From contig CAVQUB010000015.1 of NCBI GenBank assembly GCA_963716725.1, positions 64,001 to 128,000 on the forward strand: a DNA stretch of 64,000 nucleotides. The letters are read 5' to 3'. Positions within the stretch are counted from its first letter, which is position 1; each line of letters starts with the position of its first letter. Below are positions 13,978 to 22,116 of the stretch, in pieces. The DNA comes from an uncultured delta proteobacterium (GTDB taxonomy: Bacteria > Myxococcota_A > Polyangia > Polyangiales > Polyangiaceae). Below the pieces are notes generated by a model. That model did not search any database. It had not been told where the DNA came from and was given only the letters and a program-made list of their open reading frames with translations. Both the position numbers and the translations under genes were made by a program.

Positions 13978-14064
13978 GGCAGTGGATCCTAGCAGTTTCA
14001 GCCCACACCCGCGAAATCCAGGCGTTTTCCCAGCGGGCCCGTCGTGCTACCCGACCGGCGCGAG

Positions 14065-15492
14065 ATGCTCGATCGCTGGGAACCCGTCATCGGACTCGAG
14101 GTCCACGCCCAGCTCCTGACGGAGACGAAGCTGTTCTGCGGCTGCGCGATGCGCTTCGGCGAGGAGCCGAACCGAAACGTGTGTCCCGTCTGCTTGGGTT
14201 TGCCGGGCGCGCTGCCCGTGCTCAACCGTCGGGCGGTCGAGCTGGCCGTGCGCGCGGCGTCGGCCCTCGACTGCACGGTGCACGAGCGCAGCGTCTTCGA
14301 GCGCAAGAACTACTTCTACCCGGATCTGCCCAAGGGGTACCAGCTGAGCCAGTACGCGGCGCCCCTCGCGACCCGCGGACACCTGGATGTCGAGCTGGAC
14401 GGCGTCCTGAAGCGAGCGGGCATCACCCGGGTGCACATGGAAGAGGACGCCGGCAAGAACGTGCACGGCGTGGGGGGTGACTCGCTGGTCGATCTGAATC
14501 GCGCCGGGACGCCCTTGATCGAGATCGTGGGCGATCCGGATCTCGGCAGCGCCGCCGAAGCATCGGCCTACCTCCGCGCCCTGCGCGACGTGTTGATCTT
14601 CATCCGCGTGAACGACGGAAACCTGGAGGAGGGTAGCTTTCGCTGCGACGCGAACGTCTCGGTGCGTCGGGTGGGGGAGTCGCAACTGGGGACGCGGACC
14701 GAGATCAAGAACGTCAACAGCTTTCGCTTCGTGCAGCGAGCCATCGAGCTCGAGATCAGTCGGCAGGTTGCGATCCTCGAGAGCGGCGGGCGCATCGTGC
14801 AGGAGACTCGCGGCTTCGATCACGAGGCAGGTCGCACCTATTCGCTGCGCTCGAAAGGAGATGCGCACGACTACCGCTACTTCCCAGATCCGGATCTGCC
14901 GCCCTTGTTCGTGGACGCCGCCCTCCGCACCCAAACACTGCCGGAGCTGCCGGCGGCGAAGCGCCTGCGCTACCAGGCCCTGGGACTTCCGACCCAGGCG
15001 GCCCAGACCCTGACAAGTCACCCGGAAATCGCGCGCTTCTTCGAGGACACCTCGAGTCGCTATCCGGACGCGGTGAAGGCCGCGAACTTCATCCAGACCG
15101 AGGTGCTCCGGGACGCGAAGCTCCGGGGCCTCCGCGCGAGCTTCAGCGTCACGCCCGAGCAAGTCGCGGAGCTGCTTGCGCTGACTGACGCCGGCAAGAT
15201 CAGCGGCAAGCAGGCCAAGGAGGTCCTGGCCGTCATGATCGAGAGCGGCAGCATGCCGAGCGCCATCGTGGCCGAGCGCGGCCTGGCGGTGGTCTCCGAC
15301 GAGAGCCAGCTGTTGCCGATCTGCCAGCGGCTGATCGCGGATCACCCCAAGCAGGTCGAGCAGGTGCGTCAGGGCAAGAAGGGCATGATCGGATTCTTCG
15401 TCGGGCAGGTCATGAAACAGACCGGCGGCGCCGCGGATCCCAAGCTGGTCAACGCCCTGCTCGAGAAGCTGATGGCCGAGGAGAAGAGCTGA
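14065..15492 (+). CDS. gatB: Asp/Glu-tRNA amidotransferase subunit B
   Basis: [54 protein letters not shown]. Confidence 0.97.
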
Positions 15493-16533
15493 TGCCCGTC
15501 CCGCATGCCGAACCCCTGTCTGGCGCGAGCTACTCCGCCGTCGAGCTCTGCCCTGACAACGACGCCGTGCTGATGCTCGATCAGCGCCGTCTGCCGGGCG
15601 AGGAGATCTACGAGCGGCTCACGACCTCGTCCGAGGTGGCGCGGGGGATCACCGACATGGTGGTCCGCGGCGCTCCGGCCATCGGCGTCGCGGCGGCGTA
15701 TGGCATGGTGCTTGCGGCCCGGAGGTCCGCGAGCATCGACGAGCTGCGCGCGTTGGCGGGCGAGCTCCGGCGGGCGCGCCCCACTGCGGTGAACCTGATG
15801 TGGGCCGTGGATCGCATGCTGGCCCTGGCGGAGCTTGGCGCCGACGCCACCGCGCTGGCGGCCGAAGCCCGGGCCATCCATCGAGACGACGTCGCCGCGT
15901 GTCGACGCATGGGCGCGCTGGGAGCCGAGCGCGTGCCCGACGGCGCGACCATCCTCACGCACTGCAACGCCGGAGCGCTCGCCACCGGCGGCTTTGGCTC
16001 GGCCCTCGGCGTGATCCGCGCCGCGGTCGAGGCGGGCAAGAGCGTGCGCGTGCTCGCCGACGAGACCCGGCCCTACCTCCAGGGCCTGCGGCTCACGGCG
16101 TGGGAGCTCCATCAGGACGACATCCCGGTGGAGATCCTGACTGACGGGATGGCTGGCTGGTTCTTCTCCAAAGGCGCCATCGATCTGGTGGTGGTCGGCT
16201 CGGACCGCATCGCGAGGAACGGCGACGTCGCCAACAAGATCGGGACGTACTCGGTGGCCTGCCTCGCCCGCCTACACGATCGCCCCTTCTACGTGGCGGC
16301 GCCGTGGTCCACCGTCGATCTCGAGCTGCCCGACCGGCGACGAGATCCCGATCGAAGAGCGCAGCATCACGGAGATCACGCACTTCGGCGGTCGTCGCAT
16401 CGCGCCCGAGGGCGTTGGCGCAAGGAACCCCGGCTTCGACGTCACGCCGGCGCGACTGGTCAGCGCCATCTTCACCGAGCGCGGCGTGATCGATCCGGTG
16501 GGCGAGGTCGGCGTGGCGGCGCTCGCCCGCTGA
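15492..16533 (+). CDS. mtnA: S-methyl-5-thioribose-1-phosphate isomerase (one +1 frameshift near 16332)
   Basis: [49 protein letters not shown]. The +1 frame gives IPIEER...NPGFDVTP...TERG to TGA 16531-16533. Confidence 0.93.
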
Positions 16534-16613
16534 GAGGTCGGCGCTCGCTGCTCAGCCCGCGCCCCGAGGCCCCGAATTGCGAGGGCTGGCGGCTTGATGT
16601 ATCAGGTGGAGGC

Positions 16614-17291
16614 ATGCCGCCTCGCGCCGCCTTCGTGACCCTGCCCGCGTTGATCGGGCTCGGGGTGCTGTTCGCCGCGGGCTGTGAGCCCAAGCGATCC
16701 GCCGACGGACAGAGGGCGTCAGCCTCCCCGTCCTCGCTTGCGGCCCCGTCGGCCAGCGCGGTCGCGAAGTCGCCCTTCCCACCGGAGGCGCGGCGCGACT
16801 CGCCTCCGAAGGCCATCGCGGAGAGTGCGCTCGCTTTGGGTCGGGTGGCTCCGCCGCTCGCTGGGCTGCCGTCAACAGCGGGAACTTGGAGCCGCGCTTC
16901 GAAAGTGACGGCGCTGGTCTTTTACCGGGGTCACTGGTGACCCTACTGTCGCCGGCAGCTCGGGGAGCTGCAGAGTCAACGCGGAGAGTTCGAGAAGCGC
17001 GGCGCTGAGTTGGTCGCGCTCAGCGTGGATCCGGTCGACGTCAGCAAGGAGCTGGCGGAGCGGGAGAAGCTCTCTCTGACGCTGCTCTCCGATCCGGACC
17101 GCAGAGTGATCAAGGCATTCGGGCTCGACGATCCGGGCAACGAGGTCTCATGGCCCGCGGTGTACGTGATCGGCGCCGACGGAACCGTGGTCTATCGTGC
17201 GTTTCTCGAGTCGTACAAACAACGCCCTGCCGTGGCCGAGATCCTGGCCGCCGTCGATCGTGCGGCGCCGAGCGAAGGCGGCCCACGCTGA
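16614..17291 (+). CDS. Peroxiredoxin-like (AhpC/TSA, thioredoxin fold) lipoprotein with in-frame UGA at 16938-16940, probable selenoprotein
   Basis: GGAGG SD, lipobox [13 protein letters not shown]-[TGA][10 protein letters not shown]. The same frame continues ALSVD...[14 protein letters not shown]...[12 protein letters not shown]. Confidence 0.82.
16955..16971 (+). promoter_or_regulatory. Candidate bacterial SECIS hairpin
   Basis: gcagct-cgggg-agctgc: 6-7 bp stem with a G-rich loop about 20 nt 3' of the in-frame UGA. Confidence 0.6.
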
Positions 17292-17308
17292 ACGCGCAGC
17301 CATGAGCT

Positions 17309-18451
17309 TCAGCGCGTCGGGGGCGGGCGGCAGCTGAAGCCATTTTCCAGCGACAGCGACTCGACAGCACCGGCCGGTCTTTCGGCCGTCGCGCCTTCGC
17401 GAGGCACCCACACTCGCGCGTCGGCCCAGCGCAGGTCGAGCTCGCGCCAGGCTGCCATGTCGCCGATCTCGACGTGCACCGTCCTGTTGAGAGCGTGTCG
17501 CAGCACGCCAATGACCTCTCCCCAGGGCTCGCTGTACAGGCACGCGCCGCGCGGGAAAGTCAGGGTCTCCTCGGGTGGATTCTTGCGGGCACCGTAGCCG
17601 AAGCCGCCACTGCCCCAACCCATCGATTGGGGTTGGGATAGCGCGGACTTGGGCACGAACCCCCGCACCGACAGCGTCGACGAGCCGTAGGCGATCTCCA
17701 CGAACCAAGCCGCGCTCTTCGCCACGGTCCCGACTCGCACCTGGGGTGGCGCAGTGTCGACGAGCTTTCCGAGCGCGGATCCCCCGGGGCGCTCGAGCAC
17801 ATTCGAGAGGGGCGCCAATACCCACTCCTCGGTTCCCGGCGCTTCGGGGATTGGAGAGGGCAAGTAGGCGTGGCCGATCGCGCTGATGGGCAGCCAGCCG
17901 ACGGCCTCGAAGGTGCGGTCGCTGGCGGAGACCCGAGCCAAGTCACCCTTGTCGTTCAGGCGTTGGAGGAAAGCGCCGGGACCCACGCGCACGCGCTCGT
18001 TCGGCCCTGCTTTGACCGGTTGGCGCGTGAGCGGCGTCACGCGGAGCGGGGTCGGCCAGAGCTTGGTGTTCTCGGTCCAGAGCAAGACCCGCAGTGAAGG
18101 GTCGTCGAAGATGATGCGGGTGCGTCCTGGGGACTGGTCCACGACCACTCGAGGGGGCGCGCGGCCGAGCCCGGCGTACGGGAGCGCGCGTTCGACGAAG
18201 CGGGCCTCGAAGCCGTCGCGGAGCAGCGCTGCGGCAGGCGGAACGTTCGATGCAGGTGCGCGGTCGGCCGCGCTCGCGTCAACCACCGTCGCCGACGCTG
18301 ACGCCGCGATTGACGACGCGGTTGCCACCGTCGGCTCCGGTCGGGGGGCGGTTGGCCCGGGAGCGGCGGTCCCGCAGGCCCACAGACCCGAGCTGGACGC
18401 GACGAGAGCCGAGACCACGGCCCGCCAGCTCGCAGCGCGAGTTTGCAGCAT
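17309..18451 (-). CDS. Hypothetical lipoprotein with tandem SH3-like beta domains
   Basis: Lipobox-like LWAC, Pro/Ala linker, repeated beta motifs FEAVGWLP, SVRGFVPKSAL, ARVWVP. Confidence 0.65.
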   Translation of the reverse strand: MLQTRAASWRAVVSALVASSSGLWACGTAAPGPTAPRPEPTVATASSIAASASATVVDASAADRAPASNVPPAAALLRDGFEARFVERALPYAGLGRAPPRVVVDQSPGRTRIIFDDPSLRVLLWTENTKLWPTPLRVTPLTRQPVKAGPNERVRVGPGAFLQRLNDKGDLARVSASDRTFEAVGWLPISAIGHAYLPSPIPEAPGTEEWVLAPLSNVLERPGGSALGKLVDTAPPQVRVGTVAKSAAWFVEIAYGSSTLSVRGFVPKSALSQPQSMGWGSGGFGYGARKNPPEETLTFPRGACLYSEPWGEVIGVLRHALNRTVHVEIGDMAAWRELDLRWADARVWVPREGATAERPAGAVESLSLENGFSCRPPPTR

Positions 18452-18554
18452 GCGCGTCACCCTAGCTCATCTTGCGCGGGTCCGAGCCGAGACAGCGACG
18501 CCACGGTCGTGGTCCTCGACACCCTACCGATTGCCAAGCTATCTTCGAAAGTGG

Positions 18555-20396
18555 ATGCTCAGGCTTCTTCGCCTCGTCGGGTTGCTCGTCGTCGGCGTTC
18601 CGCCGCTGTGGCTCGGGGGAGCTTGTTCGTTGCTGTCGGATCTGACACTCTACGGGACGACACCGGCGGCGCCGCAGACTCTGGGAGCAGCGACAGCGGC
18701 ACGAACGACGGTGGCGGGTGCAAGCCGAAGACCTGGCAGCGCGCTGGGTGCGCTGTGCGGAGAAGCGCTGGATGGTTGTGGCGGCAAGCTCAGCTGCGGC
18801 GAGTGCCCCGGCGGGCTGTTCTGCGGCGGAGCCGGGCCCAACAAATGCGGGCAGACGCCCTGCCTCTCCAAGAGCTGCCAAGACTTGTCCGCCGAGTGCG
18901 GCCTCGCGTCGGATGGATGTGGCAAGGTGCAAGAGTGCGGTGGCTGCACCTCCCCGCAGACCTGCGGGGGCAGTGGGACGGCCAACGTCTGCGGCTGCAC
19001 GCCTGTCGCCTGCGAGAGCGTCAAGGCCAACTGCGGCGAACTCTCGGACGGCTGCGGGGTCAAGCTGAACTGTGGGACCTGTCAGCCGCCAAACACCTGC
19101 GGCGGCGGGGGCCCGGCCAACCACTGCGGTTGCACGCCGAAGTCCTGCTCTAGCCTCGGCGCGAACTGCGGCAAGCTGCCCGACGGTTGTGGCGGGCTCG
19201 TCGACTGCGGCAGCTGTCCGACCGGCGAACTCTGCGGCGGAGGCGGCGCCAACAAGTGCGGGACGGCGCCCTGCCAAGGGAAGAGCTGCGCGGATCAGGG
19301 CAAGAACTGCGGTCAGATCTCGGACGGCTGCGGCAAGACGCTGAGCTGCGGGTCTTGCTCGGGATCGCAGCTCTGCGGCGGCTCCGGGAGCGCGAACGTT
19401 TGCGGGTGCACGCCCACGACCTGTGCTGCTGAAGGCAAGAACTGCGGTGACATCAGCGACAAATGCGGTGGATCCCTGAGTTGCGGCGGGTGCAGCCCTC
19501 CCAATAGCTGCGGAGGCGGCGGAGCTCCCAATGTCTGCGGTTGTTCCCCGCAGAGCTGCAACTCGCAGGGCAAGGACTGCGGCACTATCAACAATGGCTG
19601 CGGTGGTACGGTCAACTGCGGCGCCTGCAGCGCCCCGCAGAGCTGCGGGGGAGGCGGGACCCCGAACGTATGCGGGTGCTCGGCGACCACTTGCGCGGCT
19701 CAGGGCTACGCGTGCGGAAGTATCGGCAACGGTTGCGGTGGAACGCTCAACTGCGGCAGCTGCGGAGCGAACCAGCAGTGCGTCGGAGGCAGCTGTCAGA
19801 CCACCTGTCACAGCTGTGCTTCCCTGGGTAAGAATTGCGGGACAGTCTCGGATGGCTGCTCCGGTGTGCTGGACTGCGGCAACTGCCAAGGCCCGGAATG
19901 GTGCGGCGGCGGCGGTTCCGCCAATGTCTGCGGTTGTTCCGCGCCGAGCTGCGCGGGCAAGTGCGGCGTCATCCCGAACCCCTGCGGCGGCAGCGTGAAC
20001 TGCGGTAGCTGCCCGGGCGGGCAGAGCTGTTACAACGGCTCGTGTTGCGCGCCGACCAGCTGCGGCGCTCAGGGCAAGAACTGCGGCACCATTGCCGACG
20101 GCTGCGGCGGCCAGCTCAACTGCGGCACCTGCTACGGCAATCAGGGCTGCTCGTACACCAACACCTGCGGTTTCGCTGGGCTCGGCGCCTGCGATGGCTG
20201 CCCTCCGACCTGGGACACCGTGTTTGTCGAGTCCTGCGCGTCCGGCTGCACCAGCGGACAGGAATCGCTCTGCGTCCAAGCAGGATACGACTCCTGGGCT
20301 GGCTGCGGCAGTTGCCCTGGCGGATACCACGAGGCCGCCTCGAGCTACGCGCCCTGCAGTTGCGGTGGGTACGCGGTGCTCTGCTTGCGGGACTGA
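18555..20396 (+). CDS. Secreted/lipoprotein with many CG-x3-(D/N)GCG-x2-L-x-CG-x-C Cys-rich repeats (compensating -1/+1 frameshifts near 18644 and 18735)
   Basis: Signal ending LGGAC. About 11 repeats such as NCGQISDGCGKTLSCGSC. Confidence 0.8.
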   Translation: MLRLLRLVGLLVVGVPPLWLGGACSLLSDLTLYGTTPAAPQTLGAATAARTTVAGASRRPGSALGALCGEALDGCGGKLSCGECPGGLFCGGAGPNKCGQTPCLSKSCQDLSAECGLASDGCGKVQECGGCTSPQTCGGSGTANVCGCTPVACESVKANCGELSDGCGVKLNCGTCQPPNTCGGGGPANHCGCTPKSCSSLGANCGKLPDGCGGLVDCGSCPTGELCGGGGANKCGTAPCQGKSCADQGKNCGQISDGCGKTLSCGSCSGSQLCGGSGSANVCGCTPTTCAAEGKNCGDISDKCGGSLSCGGCSPPNSCGGGGAPNVCGCSPQSCNSQGKDCGTINNGCGGTVNCGACSAPQSCGGGGTPNVCGCSATTCAAQGYACGSIGNGCGGTLNCGSCGANQQCVGGSCQTTCHSCASLGKNCGTVSDGCSGVLDCGNCQGPEWCGGGGSANVCGCSAPSCAGKCGVIPNPCGGSVNCGSCPGGQSCYNGSCCAPTSCGAQGKNCGTIADGCGGQLNCGTCYGNQGCSYTNTCGFAGLGACDGCPPTWDTVFVESCASGCTSGQESLCVQAGYDSWAGCGSCPGGYHEAASSYAPCSCGGYAVLCLRD

Positions 20397-20431
20397 GCGG
20401 CCGCGCGGGCCGCGCCTGGCTCCCGGCTGCT

Positions 20432-22039
20432 TCAGCGCAGGGCAGGTTCCGAGGGCCGAGGCTCTGGCGAGTCGCTGCGGATCGCCTCCACGGTGCGCGC
20501 CAGCGTTGGATCCGCGTCGTCGATGGGGCGGCGACGGAGCTCGACTCCGCGGGTCTGCCACCAGTTCCGAGCTTGCTCCTCGCTCCAGGGTTCGACGGCA
20601 CACGCGGCCAGCGCCTCGCGGAACGCCGCCGCGCTCGCCGGCCGATCCGCGGGCGTCTTGGCGAGCCCTTGCATGATGACCGCCTCCAACGCCGGCGGGA
20701 CCGGTCGCCCCACCCGCTGATGAACTGGAACGGGCGTGGTGTGCAGGTGGTCTGCGCAGACCTCCAGCACGGACTTGCCCTCGAACACGTGCTTGCCGGT
20801 CAGCATGAAGTAGCCGACGGCGGCCACCGCGTAGATGTCGCTGCGAGGTTCGGCGCCATCCGCCCTCGCGATGCACTCGGGCGCCATGTAGAGCGGCGTA
20901 CCCGTGAGTTCGTTGGACTGGGACTCGGTCGTACCCAATTCGGCCGCAAGGGCCTTGACCAAGCCGAAGTCCAAGACCTTGACGTGGTCGTAGGCGGCGG
21001 TGTGTCCGATGACCATGATGTTTGCCGGCTTGATGTCGCGGTGGACGAGTCCGAGACTGTGGGCTTCGTCCAGAGATGCGCAAACCTGCGACAAGAGCCA
21101 GATGGCGCGACCGGCCGGCAGTGGACCCTCGTGCTCGACCAGCTCGTCGACGGTCAGCCCGTCGAGGTATTCCATCGCGTAGTAGAAGACCCCGTCGGGC
21201 GCGCGACCGTAGTCGAAGATCGCGACCGTGTTCGGGTGTTGCAGGCGCGCAGTCGCGACGACTTCGCGCTCGAAGCGGCGCACCGACTGGGCGTCGATCC
21301 GGTCTGGAGGCAGCAGCTTGAGCGCGGTCTCGCGGCGCAGCATGCCGTGGGTCGCGCGGTACACGACGCCCATGCCGCCCTCGCCGATCTTCGCGCCCAG
21401 GGTGTATTGGCCTAGCTTCCGCGCTTCGTGCACCTCCCGGCGCAGTCCGTAGATGATCCGCGAGGCCACGGTGGCTGTCGCGAGCAACGAGCCGAGCCAC
21501 ATGACGAGGCTGATCAGCTGATACTCGAGGGGCCAATCCGCGGGACCCGCCTGGCGGACCGGCCAGCTGGGATGAAGCCCAGAGGCGAGGAAGACGACCA
21601 CCGCCGACGAGCCCGCGATCACTCCGAGGCTGAGCGTGCGCCGAGCCGTACTGGGCACGAGCACGGCTCGCAGGACGGCGGCGGTGCCCGTGGTGAGAAC
21701 GAGGTTGAACACCGCGACGGTTCGGATCGGGAAGAGCGAGCTGTTCAGGTGCAAGAGCAGCGAGAGCCCGAGGATGCCTGCCGAATCGAAGGTCTCGAGG
21801 GTCCCATGGCGCAGCGGCTTGCCGCGCAAGACGAGCCAGATGCCGCCTGTGATCAGGGTGGCGACGAAGTGAAACCAGCGGGATGGGGAGCGAAGCTCGG
21901 CGAGCAGAGTTCCGGTCAAGAGCCCGCGCACGCCGACGACCCCGACCAGGAACGCCAGGCACAGCAGGAAGCCGATCCAGTGCATCAGCGCCAGGCGCCT
22001 TTGCAGGAAATTGCGAGTGCTCTCCGAGGTCGAGGTCAC
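20432..22039 (-). CDS. Ser/Thr protein kinase with N-terminal multi-TM (about 5-6) domain
   Basis: IGEGGMGVVY, TALK, HRDIKPAN, DFG, GTPLYMAPE. Hydrophobic helices in the first ~210 aa. Confidence 0.93.
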   Translation of the reverse strand: MTSTSESTRNFLQRRLALMHWIGFLLCLAFLVGVVGVRGLLTGTLLAELRSPSRWFHFVATLITGGIWLVLRGKPLRHGTLETFDSAGILGLSLLLHLNSSLFPIRTVAVFNLVLTTGTAAVLRAVLVPSTARRTLSLGVIAGSSAVVVFLASGLHPSWPVRQAGPADWPLEYQLISLVMWLGSLLATATVASRIIYGLRREVHEARKLGQYTLGAKIGEGGMGVVYRATHGMLRRETALKLLPPDRIDAQSVRRFEREVVATARLQHPNTVAIFDYGRAPDGVFYYAMEYLDGLTVDELVEHEGPLPAGRAIWLLSQVCASLDEAHSLGLVHRDIKPANIMVIGHTAAYDHVKVLDFGLVKALAAELGTTESQSNELTGTPLYMAPECIARADGAEPRSDIYAVAAVGYFMLTGKHVFEGKSVLEVCADHLHTTPVPVHQRVGRPVPPALEAVIMQGLAKTPADRPASAAAFREALAACAVEPWSEEQARNWWQTRGVELRRRPIDDADPTLARTVEAIRSDSPEPRPSEPALR

Positions 22040-22116
22040 CCTCGTGGATCAGCACGGAGGCGGCGCGGCGGAAATGACTTCAGCCAAGGGAGCGCTTCGC
22101 GTGGGGCTTCCCGGCT

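Follow-up and report, generated by a model that had tools for sequence, protein, structure and literature searches.

UxxC selenoproteins on a peroxiredoxin-like domain do exist, as the original prediction for this locus had stated, and they have been catalogued several times (PMC1088965, PMC2398784, PMC9312934, PMC13188914). The Sargasso Sea study of 2005 assigned 22 selenoprotein sequences to a family named 'Prx-like protein', which has a UXXC motif, and its description of that family amounts to a thioredoxin-like UxxC site on a peroxiredoxin scaffold (PMC1088965). A bacterial survey of 2006 reported a 'Prx-like thiol:disulfide oxidoreductase' in several Geobacter, Syntrophus and Desulfotalea genomes (PMC1794560), and the GOS study of 2008 counted 225 selenoproteins and 2,740 Cys homologues of 'Prx-like 1' (pfam00578, UxxC; PMC2398784). 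Reviews of 2022 (PMC9312934) and 2026 (PMC13188914) both name WP_010940744.1 as the reference protein of the Prx-like thiol:disulfide oxidoreductase family and list the family as predicted, not verified. The family descriptions in these two reviews say nothing on export, lipoproteins, Polyangia or Acidobacteriota; the supplementary tables may list such members. The word 'lipoprotein' is absent from the 2026 review, and 'peroxiredoxin', 'thiol', 'Myxococc' and 'Acidobacteri' have zero occurrences in the BSepDB paper (PMC13326102). Among the matches listed by our literature search there was no relevant paper on the selenoproteomes of Myxococcota or Acidobacteriota, and none on exported Prx-like selenoproteins.

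The locus described here lies at positions 16614-17291 on the forward strand of the window, by which we mean the whole stretch of 64,000 nucleotides that was analysed; its source is a metagenome-assembled genome of 35 contigs, 84% complete. The locus comprises 225 codons in one frame, with the TGA at 16938-16940 (residue 109) as the sole internal stop. In the ORF list, one ORF closes at 16940 (...ALVFYRGHW) and the next opens at 17010 in the identical frame. Reading the sequence bore out the starting observation that the two pieces share a frame, are split only by this TGA and form a W-[UGA]-P-Y-C motif: translated with TGA as U, the locus encodes 225 residues with W-U-P-Y-C in the context FYRGHW-U-PYC, the U being residue 109. 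The terminal stop of the gene, at 17289-17291, is TGA too. We consider 16614-17291 very probably a genuine selenoprotein gene that gene callers have mis-split. The best explanation overall, to which we give a probability of about 0.87, is a host-decoded, exported, 225-residue selenocysteine (Sec) redox protein of the known Prx-like family; the conservation of the TGA, its presence in contigs of several studies and the Sec machinery of the genome all speak for the 225-residue selenoprotein first proposed, and they point to Sec insertion. The features of the locus are as follows.

16614..17291, + strand: complete selenoprotein coding sequence, with one internal TGA, a PF00578 domain and full-length alignment to orthologues
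16614..16685, + strand: predicted signal peptide, ending in the lipobox L-F-A-A-G-C (residues 19-24, 16668-16685), from sequence reading and regular expression
16686..16799, + strand: Ser/Pro/Ala-rich linker, residues 25-62, probably disordered, from composition and a pLDDT of 57-62 without secondary structure
16800..17273, + strand: peroxiredoxin/BCP-fold redox domain, residues ~63-220, from AlphaFold2, Foldseek and phmmer
16938..16940, + strand: in-frame TGA, most likely read as selenocysteine, residue 109, position 1 of U-P-Y-C, from contigs and the homologue column
16947..16949, + strand: codon of Cys112, the Cys of UxxC, from sequence reading
16955..16971, + strand: SECIS-like hairpin GCAGCU(C)-GGG-(G)AGCUGC, with a 6-7 bp stem and a G-rich apical loop
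17154..17156, + strand: Pro181, at the peroxiredoxin catalytic-Arg position in the 2cx3 alignment and nearly invariant in 60 sequences

The redox domain was assigned by both sequence and structure. Pfam places AhpC-TSA (PF00578) at residues 97-194 with an E value of 7.2e-26 and 91 bits against a cut-off of 26, and Redoxin matches too. An AlphaFold2 model built on a 60-sequence alignment has a pLDDT of 87-98 for residues ~63-220 and a low pLDDT, about 58, over the N-terminal residues 1-60 (about 58-60 at the signal peptide). Foldseek groups the domain with BCP/AhpE/Prx6-type peroxiredoxins, the matches to Bcp4 (3hjp; TMt 0.86, rmsd 1.6) and AhpE (5c04; TMt 0.88) each having a probability of 1.00. 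By phmmer, the best PDB sequence match is BCP 2cx3 (1.6e-11), and ResA entries are matched at E values of 1e-5 to 7e-4.

Peroxiredoxins share the active-site motif Pro-x3-Thr/Ser-x2-Cys and a conserved catalytic Arg before a beta-strand. In the phmmer alignment to 2cx3, which sets FFPAAF-S-PVC against FYRGHW-C-PYC and K-R against W-P181, the Cys alone of this motif is kept: Cys112 occupies the peroxidatic-Cys position, Sec109 occupies the Thr/Ser position, Arg105 replaces the active-site Pro, and Pro181 is found in place of the catalytic Arg. Across the 60-sequence alignment, F103, R105, W108, C/U109 and C112 are invariant, and P110, P181, Y201 and R204 are nearly so. Because Sec stands at the Thr position and both the Pro and the Arg are replaced, the protein is read as a thioredoxin-like UxxC oxidoreductase and not as a true peroxiredoxin: the UxxC site is thioredoxin-like, the scaffold is that of a peroxiredoxin, and the function is predicted. 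The earlier label 'peroxiredoxin-like' thus holds for the Prx/BCP fold and the UxxC motif, but it does not extend to peroxiredoxins proper, whose Pro, Thr and Arg are replaced here.

Five features expected of a member of the Prx-like thiol:disulfide oxidoreductase family were found at this locus or in its host: a PF00578 domain, Sec in a UxxC motif at the thioredoxin-like position rather than in TxxU, Cys homologues, a SECIS-like stem-loop, and host SelA, SelB, SelD and tRNA-Sec. Since the AhpC-TSA domain and the Sec motif are those authors' own criteria, the gene belongs, by domain and motif, to this catalogued, predicted family. The likeness covers the AhpC-TSA domain, UxxC, the many Cys homologues, the SECIS-like hairpin after the UGA and a function that is predicted only. 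It follows that the locus represents a known kind of selenoprotein, described since 2005, rather than a new system, and what is known of selenocysteine decoding is unchanged. The clade of the window protein (FYRGxW-U-PxC ... DYKxRP) differs from the published members in two respects. It consists of Polyangia (Myxococcota) and Acidobacteriota of soil, wastewater and groundwater, whereas the family members in the published descriptions come from marine samples and anaerobic Deltaproteobacteria; and it bears a signal peptide, in the window protein with a lipobox, whereas those descriptions make no mention of export.

The window protein was also compared with other thioredoxin-fold proteins. With the BCP/PrxQ and AhpE peroxiredoxins (2cx3, 3hjp, 5c04) it shares the fold (TMt 0.86-0.88), the best PDB sequence matches and the Cys at the peroxidatic position; it differs in having Arg105, Sec109 and Pro181 for Pro, Thr/Ser and Arg, in a further redox residue placed three positions ahead of the Cys, and in its predicted export, those peroxiredoxins being cytoplasmic. 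ResA, TlpA and CcmG resemble it as membrane-tethered, outward-facing thioredoxin folds with W-C-x-x-C and a conserved Pro, reduced via CcdA/DsbD, and are the closest analogy for how the protein may work, although their sequence similarity is weaker than that of BCP (E 1e-5 against 1.6e-11) and they carry Cys, not Sec. Two named families were tried and rejected as assignments. The SelL-related redox proteins (NF040769) are Prx-like with a CxxC/UxxU-type motif and gave the best NCBIfam hit, but at 48.7 bits against a cut-off of 120 the window protein is not a member; the NCBIfam ResA model scored 33.1 bits against a cut-off of 170.

At the N-terminus, a lipobox regular expression after PROSITE PS51257 matches ...GVLFAAGC at residues 17-24. 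The lipobox (FAAGC) and the Ser/Pro/Ala linker named in the original prediction are both present, as seen by sequence reading, regular expression and model. The window protein is probably a lipoprotein, with Cys24 as the predicted lipidated first mature residue, and it is probably tethered to the membrane and facing the periplasm. The same expression matches 17 of 79 family members, including the window protein, L022, L032 and L034; L033 comes close to having a lipobox, and in the genus-mate L024 the residue ahead of the Cys is Asp. With so few matches, and with Asp at this place in L024, the family as a whole is not characterised by lipid anchoring. Among the 62 members that the expression does not match, 21 N-termini were inspected by eye and show ordinary hydrophobic signal peptides, so that lipoboxes and hydrophobic signal peptides together suggest that the family is extracytoplasmic as a rule.

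The mechanism that we propose begins with decoding: the UGA at 16938-16940 would most likely be read as selenocysteine by the organism's own SelA, SelB, SelD and tRNA-Sec, with the hairpin at 16955-16971 directing the insertion. The signal peptide and lipobox would most likely lead to export and to lipidation at Cys24, after which the flexible Ser/Pro/Ala linker would hold the protein at the membrane, facing the periplasm. There, the selenolate of Sec109 would attack an oxidised substrate, for which our guess is a protein disulfide, a sulfenic acid or possibly a peroxide, and Cys112 would resolve the Sec109 adduct, giving a selenenylsulfide. Electrons carried across the membrane would re-reduce this selenenylsulfide; a candidate donor, again a guess, is the single DsbD/CcdA-type transporter (DsbD_TM) whose gene lies elsewhere in the genome.

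A different substrate would make the protein an extracytoplasmic peroxidase in which Sec109 reduces H2O2 or organic hydroperoxides directly, in the manner of glutathione peroxidase, with Cys112 resolving; the two readings differ in substrate alone. Selenols react quickly with peroxides, the fold is that of Prx/BCP proteins, the top sequence and structure matches are peroxidases, and Cys112 sits where their peroxidatic Cys does. We nevertheless regard direct peroxide reduction as rather unlikely, because Pro, Thr and Arg, three of the four defining residues of a peroxiredoxin active site, are replaced, and because W-U/C-P-x-C together with a conserved Pro ahead of a beta-strand follows the thioredoxin/ResA-type layout; ResA structures were matched as well, at E 1e-5. 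The literature likewise classes the family as thiol:disulfide oxidoreductases, by prediction only (PMC1088965, PMC9312934).

Homologues were sought in 40 related genomes at a threshold of E<=1e-10, which yielded nine hits in seven genomes. TGA stands at the same column in three of the nine: in G003 (73% identity, FYRGHW*PYC), in G015 (41% identity, FYRGAW*PDC) and in G006 (41% identity, FYRGHW*PWC). These TGA-form loci (L022, L023, L024) are the three closest of the nine. At the Sec column, three more distant hits (two from G007, one from G026) carry TGC or TGT, and the remaining three hits are ordinary BCP-type proteins. Similarity at the protein level persists downstream of the TGA, and the orthologues align over their full length. 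Chance falls far short of explaining the in-frame TGA, since orthologues at 41-73% identity share it and others have a Cys codon in its place. One of the three BCP-type hits is a separate selenoprotein: L026 (G014:C11:62011-62493, - strand) is a BCP/PrxQ-type peroxiredoxin with TGA at the peroxidatic position (...YPVADTPG*T...), a classical TxxU Sec-peroxiredoxin that is distinct from the W-U-P-Y-C protein.

A species-wide scan, with one genome per species and 185,579 species, returned at least 574 relatives. Among the best 80 of these at least 574 loci, the codon at the Sec column is TGA in 38 and TGC or TGT in 38, and four lack the motif by regular expression; these proportions are not unbiased, since one of the two scan patterns demanded Cys and only the top 80 were kept. 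The alignment of homologues that had been proposed as a check thus returned UGA or Cys at this column. In all, TGA occupies the Sec column in 41 sequences from two phyla, with the downstream protein sequence conserved. The Sec forms fall into two groups, the window protein and six others from Myxococcota, and 34 sequences from Acidobacteriota. The latter (within L040-L110) are mostly from Pyrinomonadaceae and are signal-peptide-bearing Sec forms with FYRGYW-U-P[YF]C. The Sec and Cys forms are intermingled in a quick maximum-likelihood tree of 82 rows, on which parsimony counts seven Sec/Cys changes; well-supported branches force at least three. Cys forms in the protein database reach 46% identity (P0002, which bears a lipobox), and P0002 and P0004-P0011 all have Cys at the Sec column. 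P0003, a 142-residue fragment from a relative, ends in ...FYRGHW and is a truncated gene call.

The original prediction had also proposed looking for the Sec machinery, and all four components were found in the genome. The genes selA (467 bits), selB (281 bits) and selD (302 bits) scored above their curated cut-offs, and tRNA-Sec, with anticodon TCA, scored 70 bits, above its cut-off. On contig 32, selA, selB and tRNA-Sec lie within about 12 kb (G000:C32:262008-273859; L001, L002, L014), the tRNA-Sec gene being on the strand opposite to selB and some 300 bases away from it. The selD gene (G000:C6:227368-228291, L010) contains one in-frame TGA, which implies that the selenophosphate synthetase is itself a selenoprotein and a second use of Sec in this genome. 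Among relatives, selA was found in all three TGA-form genomes checked (G003, G006 and G015) and was not found in two genomes with Cys forms only, G007 (80% complete) and G026 (95% complete).

The hairpin of the original prediction, with six-base arms around CGGGG and a G-rich loop about 20 nt downstream, was found at 16955-16971 (GCAGCU-CGGGG-AGCUGC), starting 14 nt past the UGA and with its loop 20-21 nt past it. ViennaRNA adds one C-G pair, giving a 7 bp stem with a GGG triloop, and the energy ranges from -9.0 to -11.5 kcal/mol according to which stretch and which pairing are evaluated. The bSECIS model of the 2026 review, as given in its Fig. 2 legend, has a loop of 3-9 nt, a stem of at least 4 bp, a G in the first two loop positions, a UGA-to-loop spacing of 16-37 nt and an energy of at most -7.5 kcal/mol (PMC13188914). 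The window hairpin lies within all of these bounds, with a loop of 3-5 nt that is G-rich, a stem of 6-7 bp and a spacing of 20-21 nt; the 7 bp version has a 3 nt loop, a spacing of 21 and an energy of -10.1 kcal/mol. The fold of the 71-nt region is no more stable than that of shuffled versions (z = 0.61; 141 of 200 shuffles are at least as stable), and 677 of 5000 positions drawn at random from the window, as well as 76 of 614 TGA triplets, also fall within these bounds. With 12-14% of random positions in this GC-rich DNA also fitting, the hairpin in a single sequence is weak evidence. The SECIS check therefore had a divided outcome: the element fits the bacterial consensus, but taken alone it says little against such a chance rate. 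A permissive Rfam search over 16500-17400 returned zero matches. To our knowledge Rfam holds no model for general bacterial SECIS elements, so this result carries little information.

The weight of the hairpin accordingly comes from comparison across sequences rather than from a single fold. The hairpin is retained in all seven Myxococcota Sec forms, where its columns are paired in 95.2% of cells, with zero double changes and one change from G-C to G-U, and a hairpin passing the strict criteria was found in none of the five Myxococcota Cys forms. Over the whole set, 22 of 41 Sec forms pass the strict script, against 3 of 38 Cys forms; the 19 Sec forms that fail include two of the seven from Myxococcota. 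Among the 34 Acidobacteriota Sec forms, the conserved hairpin is shifted upstream by three bases, to +15 to +29 after the UGA, with columns 15-19 paired to columns 25-29 in 97.6% of cells; remnants of this hairpin persist in some close Cys forms (e.g. L059 and L052). The outer pair of the Acidobacteriota hairpin covaries (UA in 19, CG in 6, GC in 4, UG in 1 and unpaired in 4), a covariation score reached by 0 of 500 shuffles, and this pair ties a synonymous position of an Ala codon to a downstream residue (Glu/Gly/Ala). A common register for both phyla, with columns 18-23 paired to 29-34, was tried and rejected in favour of columns 15-19 with 25-29, because it gave 81.9% pairing and no covariation in the 34 Acidobacteriota sequences. 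Since the SECIS hairpins stand in different registers in the two phyla, Sec may have been gained or kept separately in Myxococcota and Acidobacteriota.

These data also bear on whether the UGA could be read through by a near-cognate tRNA (Trp or Cys) or recoded in some other way, without Sec. Such a reading could appeal to the fact that Sec is deduced here from sequence, and to a hairpin that is short and, on its own, statistically unexceptional. It is nonetheless very improbable. The gene's own stop codon is also TGA, from which it follows that the organism does not read TGA as sense generally; the column alternates with Cys only, as is typical of Sec positions; the TGA form co-occurs with selA; and the hairpin is associated with the Sec forms.

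Whether the TGA is genuine, a further check named at the outset, was assessed on the contigs, as distinct from the raw reads, of four public runs from four studies, compared over 16300-17600. Run X1 has a single contig that spans this whole interval and may be the window's own source. The contig of run X6 covers 16559-17600 with zero differences from the window, and run X10 covers 16871-17311 and represents a strain that differs slightly, by substitutions at 16912, 17009 and 17026. In run X5 there are only short pieces from other organisms (16330-16519 and 17305-17325) that leave the gene uncovered, so three of the four runs are informative. The codon at 16938-16940 is identical to the window in the contigs of X1, X6 and X10, and as these come from three separate studies, the TGA is not an assembly error. 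The window assembly itself is not free of errors. The upstream gene mtnA (15492-16533, + strand), a methylthioribose-1-phosphate isomerase of the IF-2B family, is frameshifted in the window: at position 16322, the window carries one base more than the X1 and X6 contigs, and removing it restores the mtnA frame. This extra base, about 600 bases upstream of the selenoprotein gene, is probably an assembly indel error, and the TGA is not among the errors. At position 16476, all three covering runs have T instead of C.

A nonsense mutation or assembly error, which would make the locus a pseudogene or two unrelated short ORFs, can draw on the stop that gene callers place at the TGA, on the relative's fragment P0003 ending in FYRGHW and on the probable one-base error at 16322, but it is extremely improbable given a TGA shared by contigs from three studies and by 41 sequences in two phyla with conserved downstream protein, and given Sec machinery that is present and co-occurs with the TGA form.

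Reading the locus as a host-decoded, exported selenoprotein has a direct consequence for annotation. Standard callers split or truncate the gene here and probably in dozens of Polyangia and Acidobacteriota genomes, P0003 being one example, so that public annotation would conceal an entire clade of exported selenoproteins. The sequence evidence further suggests that mostly aerobic lineages of soil and wastewater keep a working Sec system and would use it outside the cytoplasm, and the paired Sec and Cys forms would be well suited to comparisons that probe the function of the family. More speculatively, the clade could be an uncharacterised extracytoplasmic selenoenzyme class of aerobic soil and wastewater Polyangia and Acidobacteriota, a lipid- or signal-anchored Sec/Cys enzyme on a Prx scaffold, fed by DsbD/CcdA, that removes peroxides or repairs oxidised envelope proteins. 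We hold this wider proposal to be unlikely; if true, it would provide a first worked-out case of redox defence in the cell envelope that depends on selenium.

The gene neighbourhood was compared with that of the closest orthologue. Upstream of the selenoprotein gene lie gatB (14044-15492) and then mtnA (15492-16533); downstream, a convergent ORF of 383 residues at 17309-18460 (- strand), which has no Pfam match, ends 18 bases past the selenoprotein stop. The closest orthologue, L022, has different neighbours: its flanks have no Pfam hits, and its downstream convergent ORF is unrelated to that at 17309-18460 (best E 1.9). The neighbours in the window, gatB and mtnA, have housekeeping roles and are not shared by the closest orthologue; as no operon is conserved, the gene context gives no hint of function. 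A promoter and terminator scan over 16300-17500 found zero sites of either kind, a result that is uninformative in GC-rich DNA. Further downstream, a long ORF at 17886-20396 (+ strand) encodes many tandem Cys-rich repeats of about 45 residues with the pattern C..C..DGCG....CG.C, with no Pfam match over 18600-20393. On the opposite strand, an ORF of 1197 codons at 18462-22055 resembles an antisense shadow of this Cys-rich repeat ORF.
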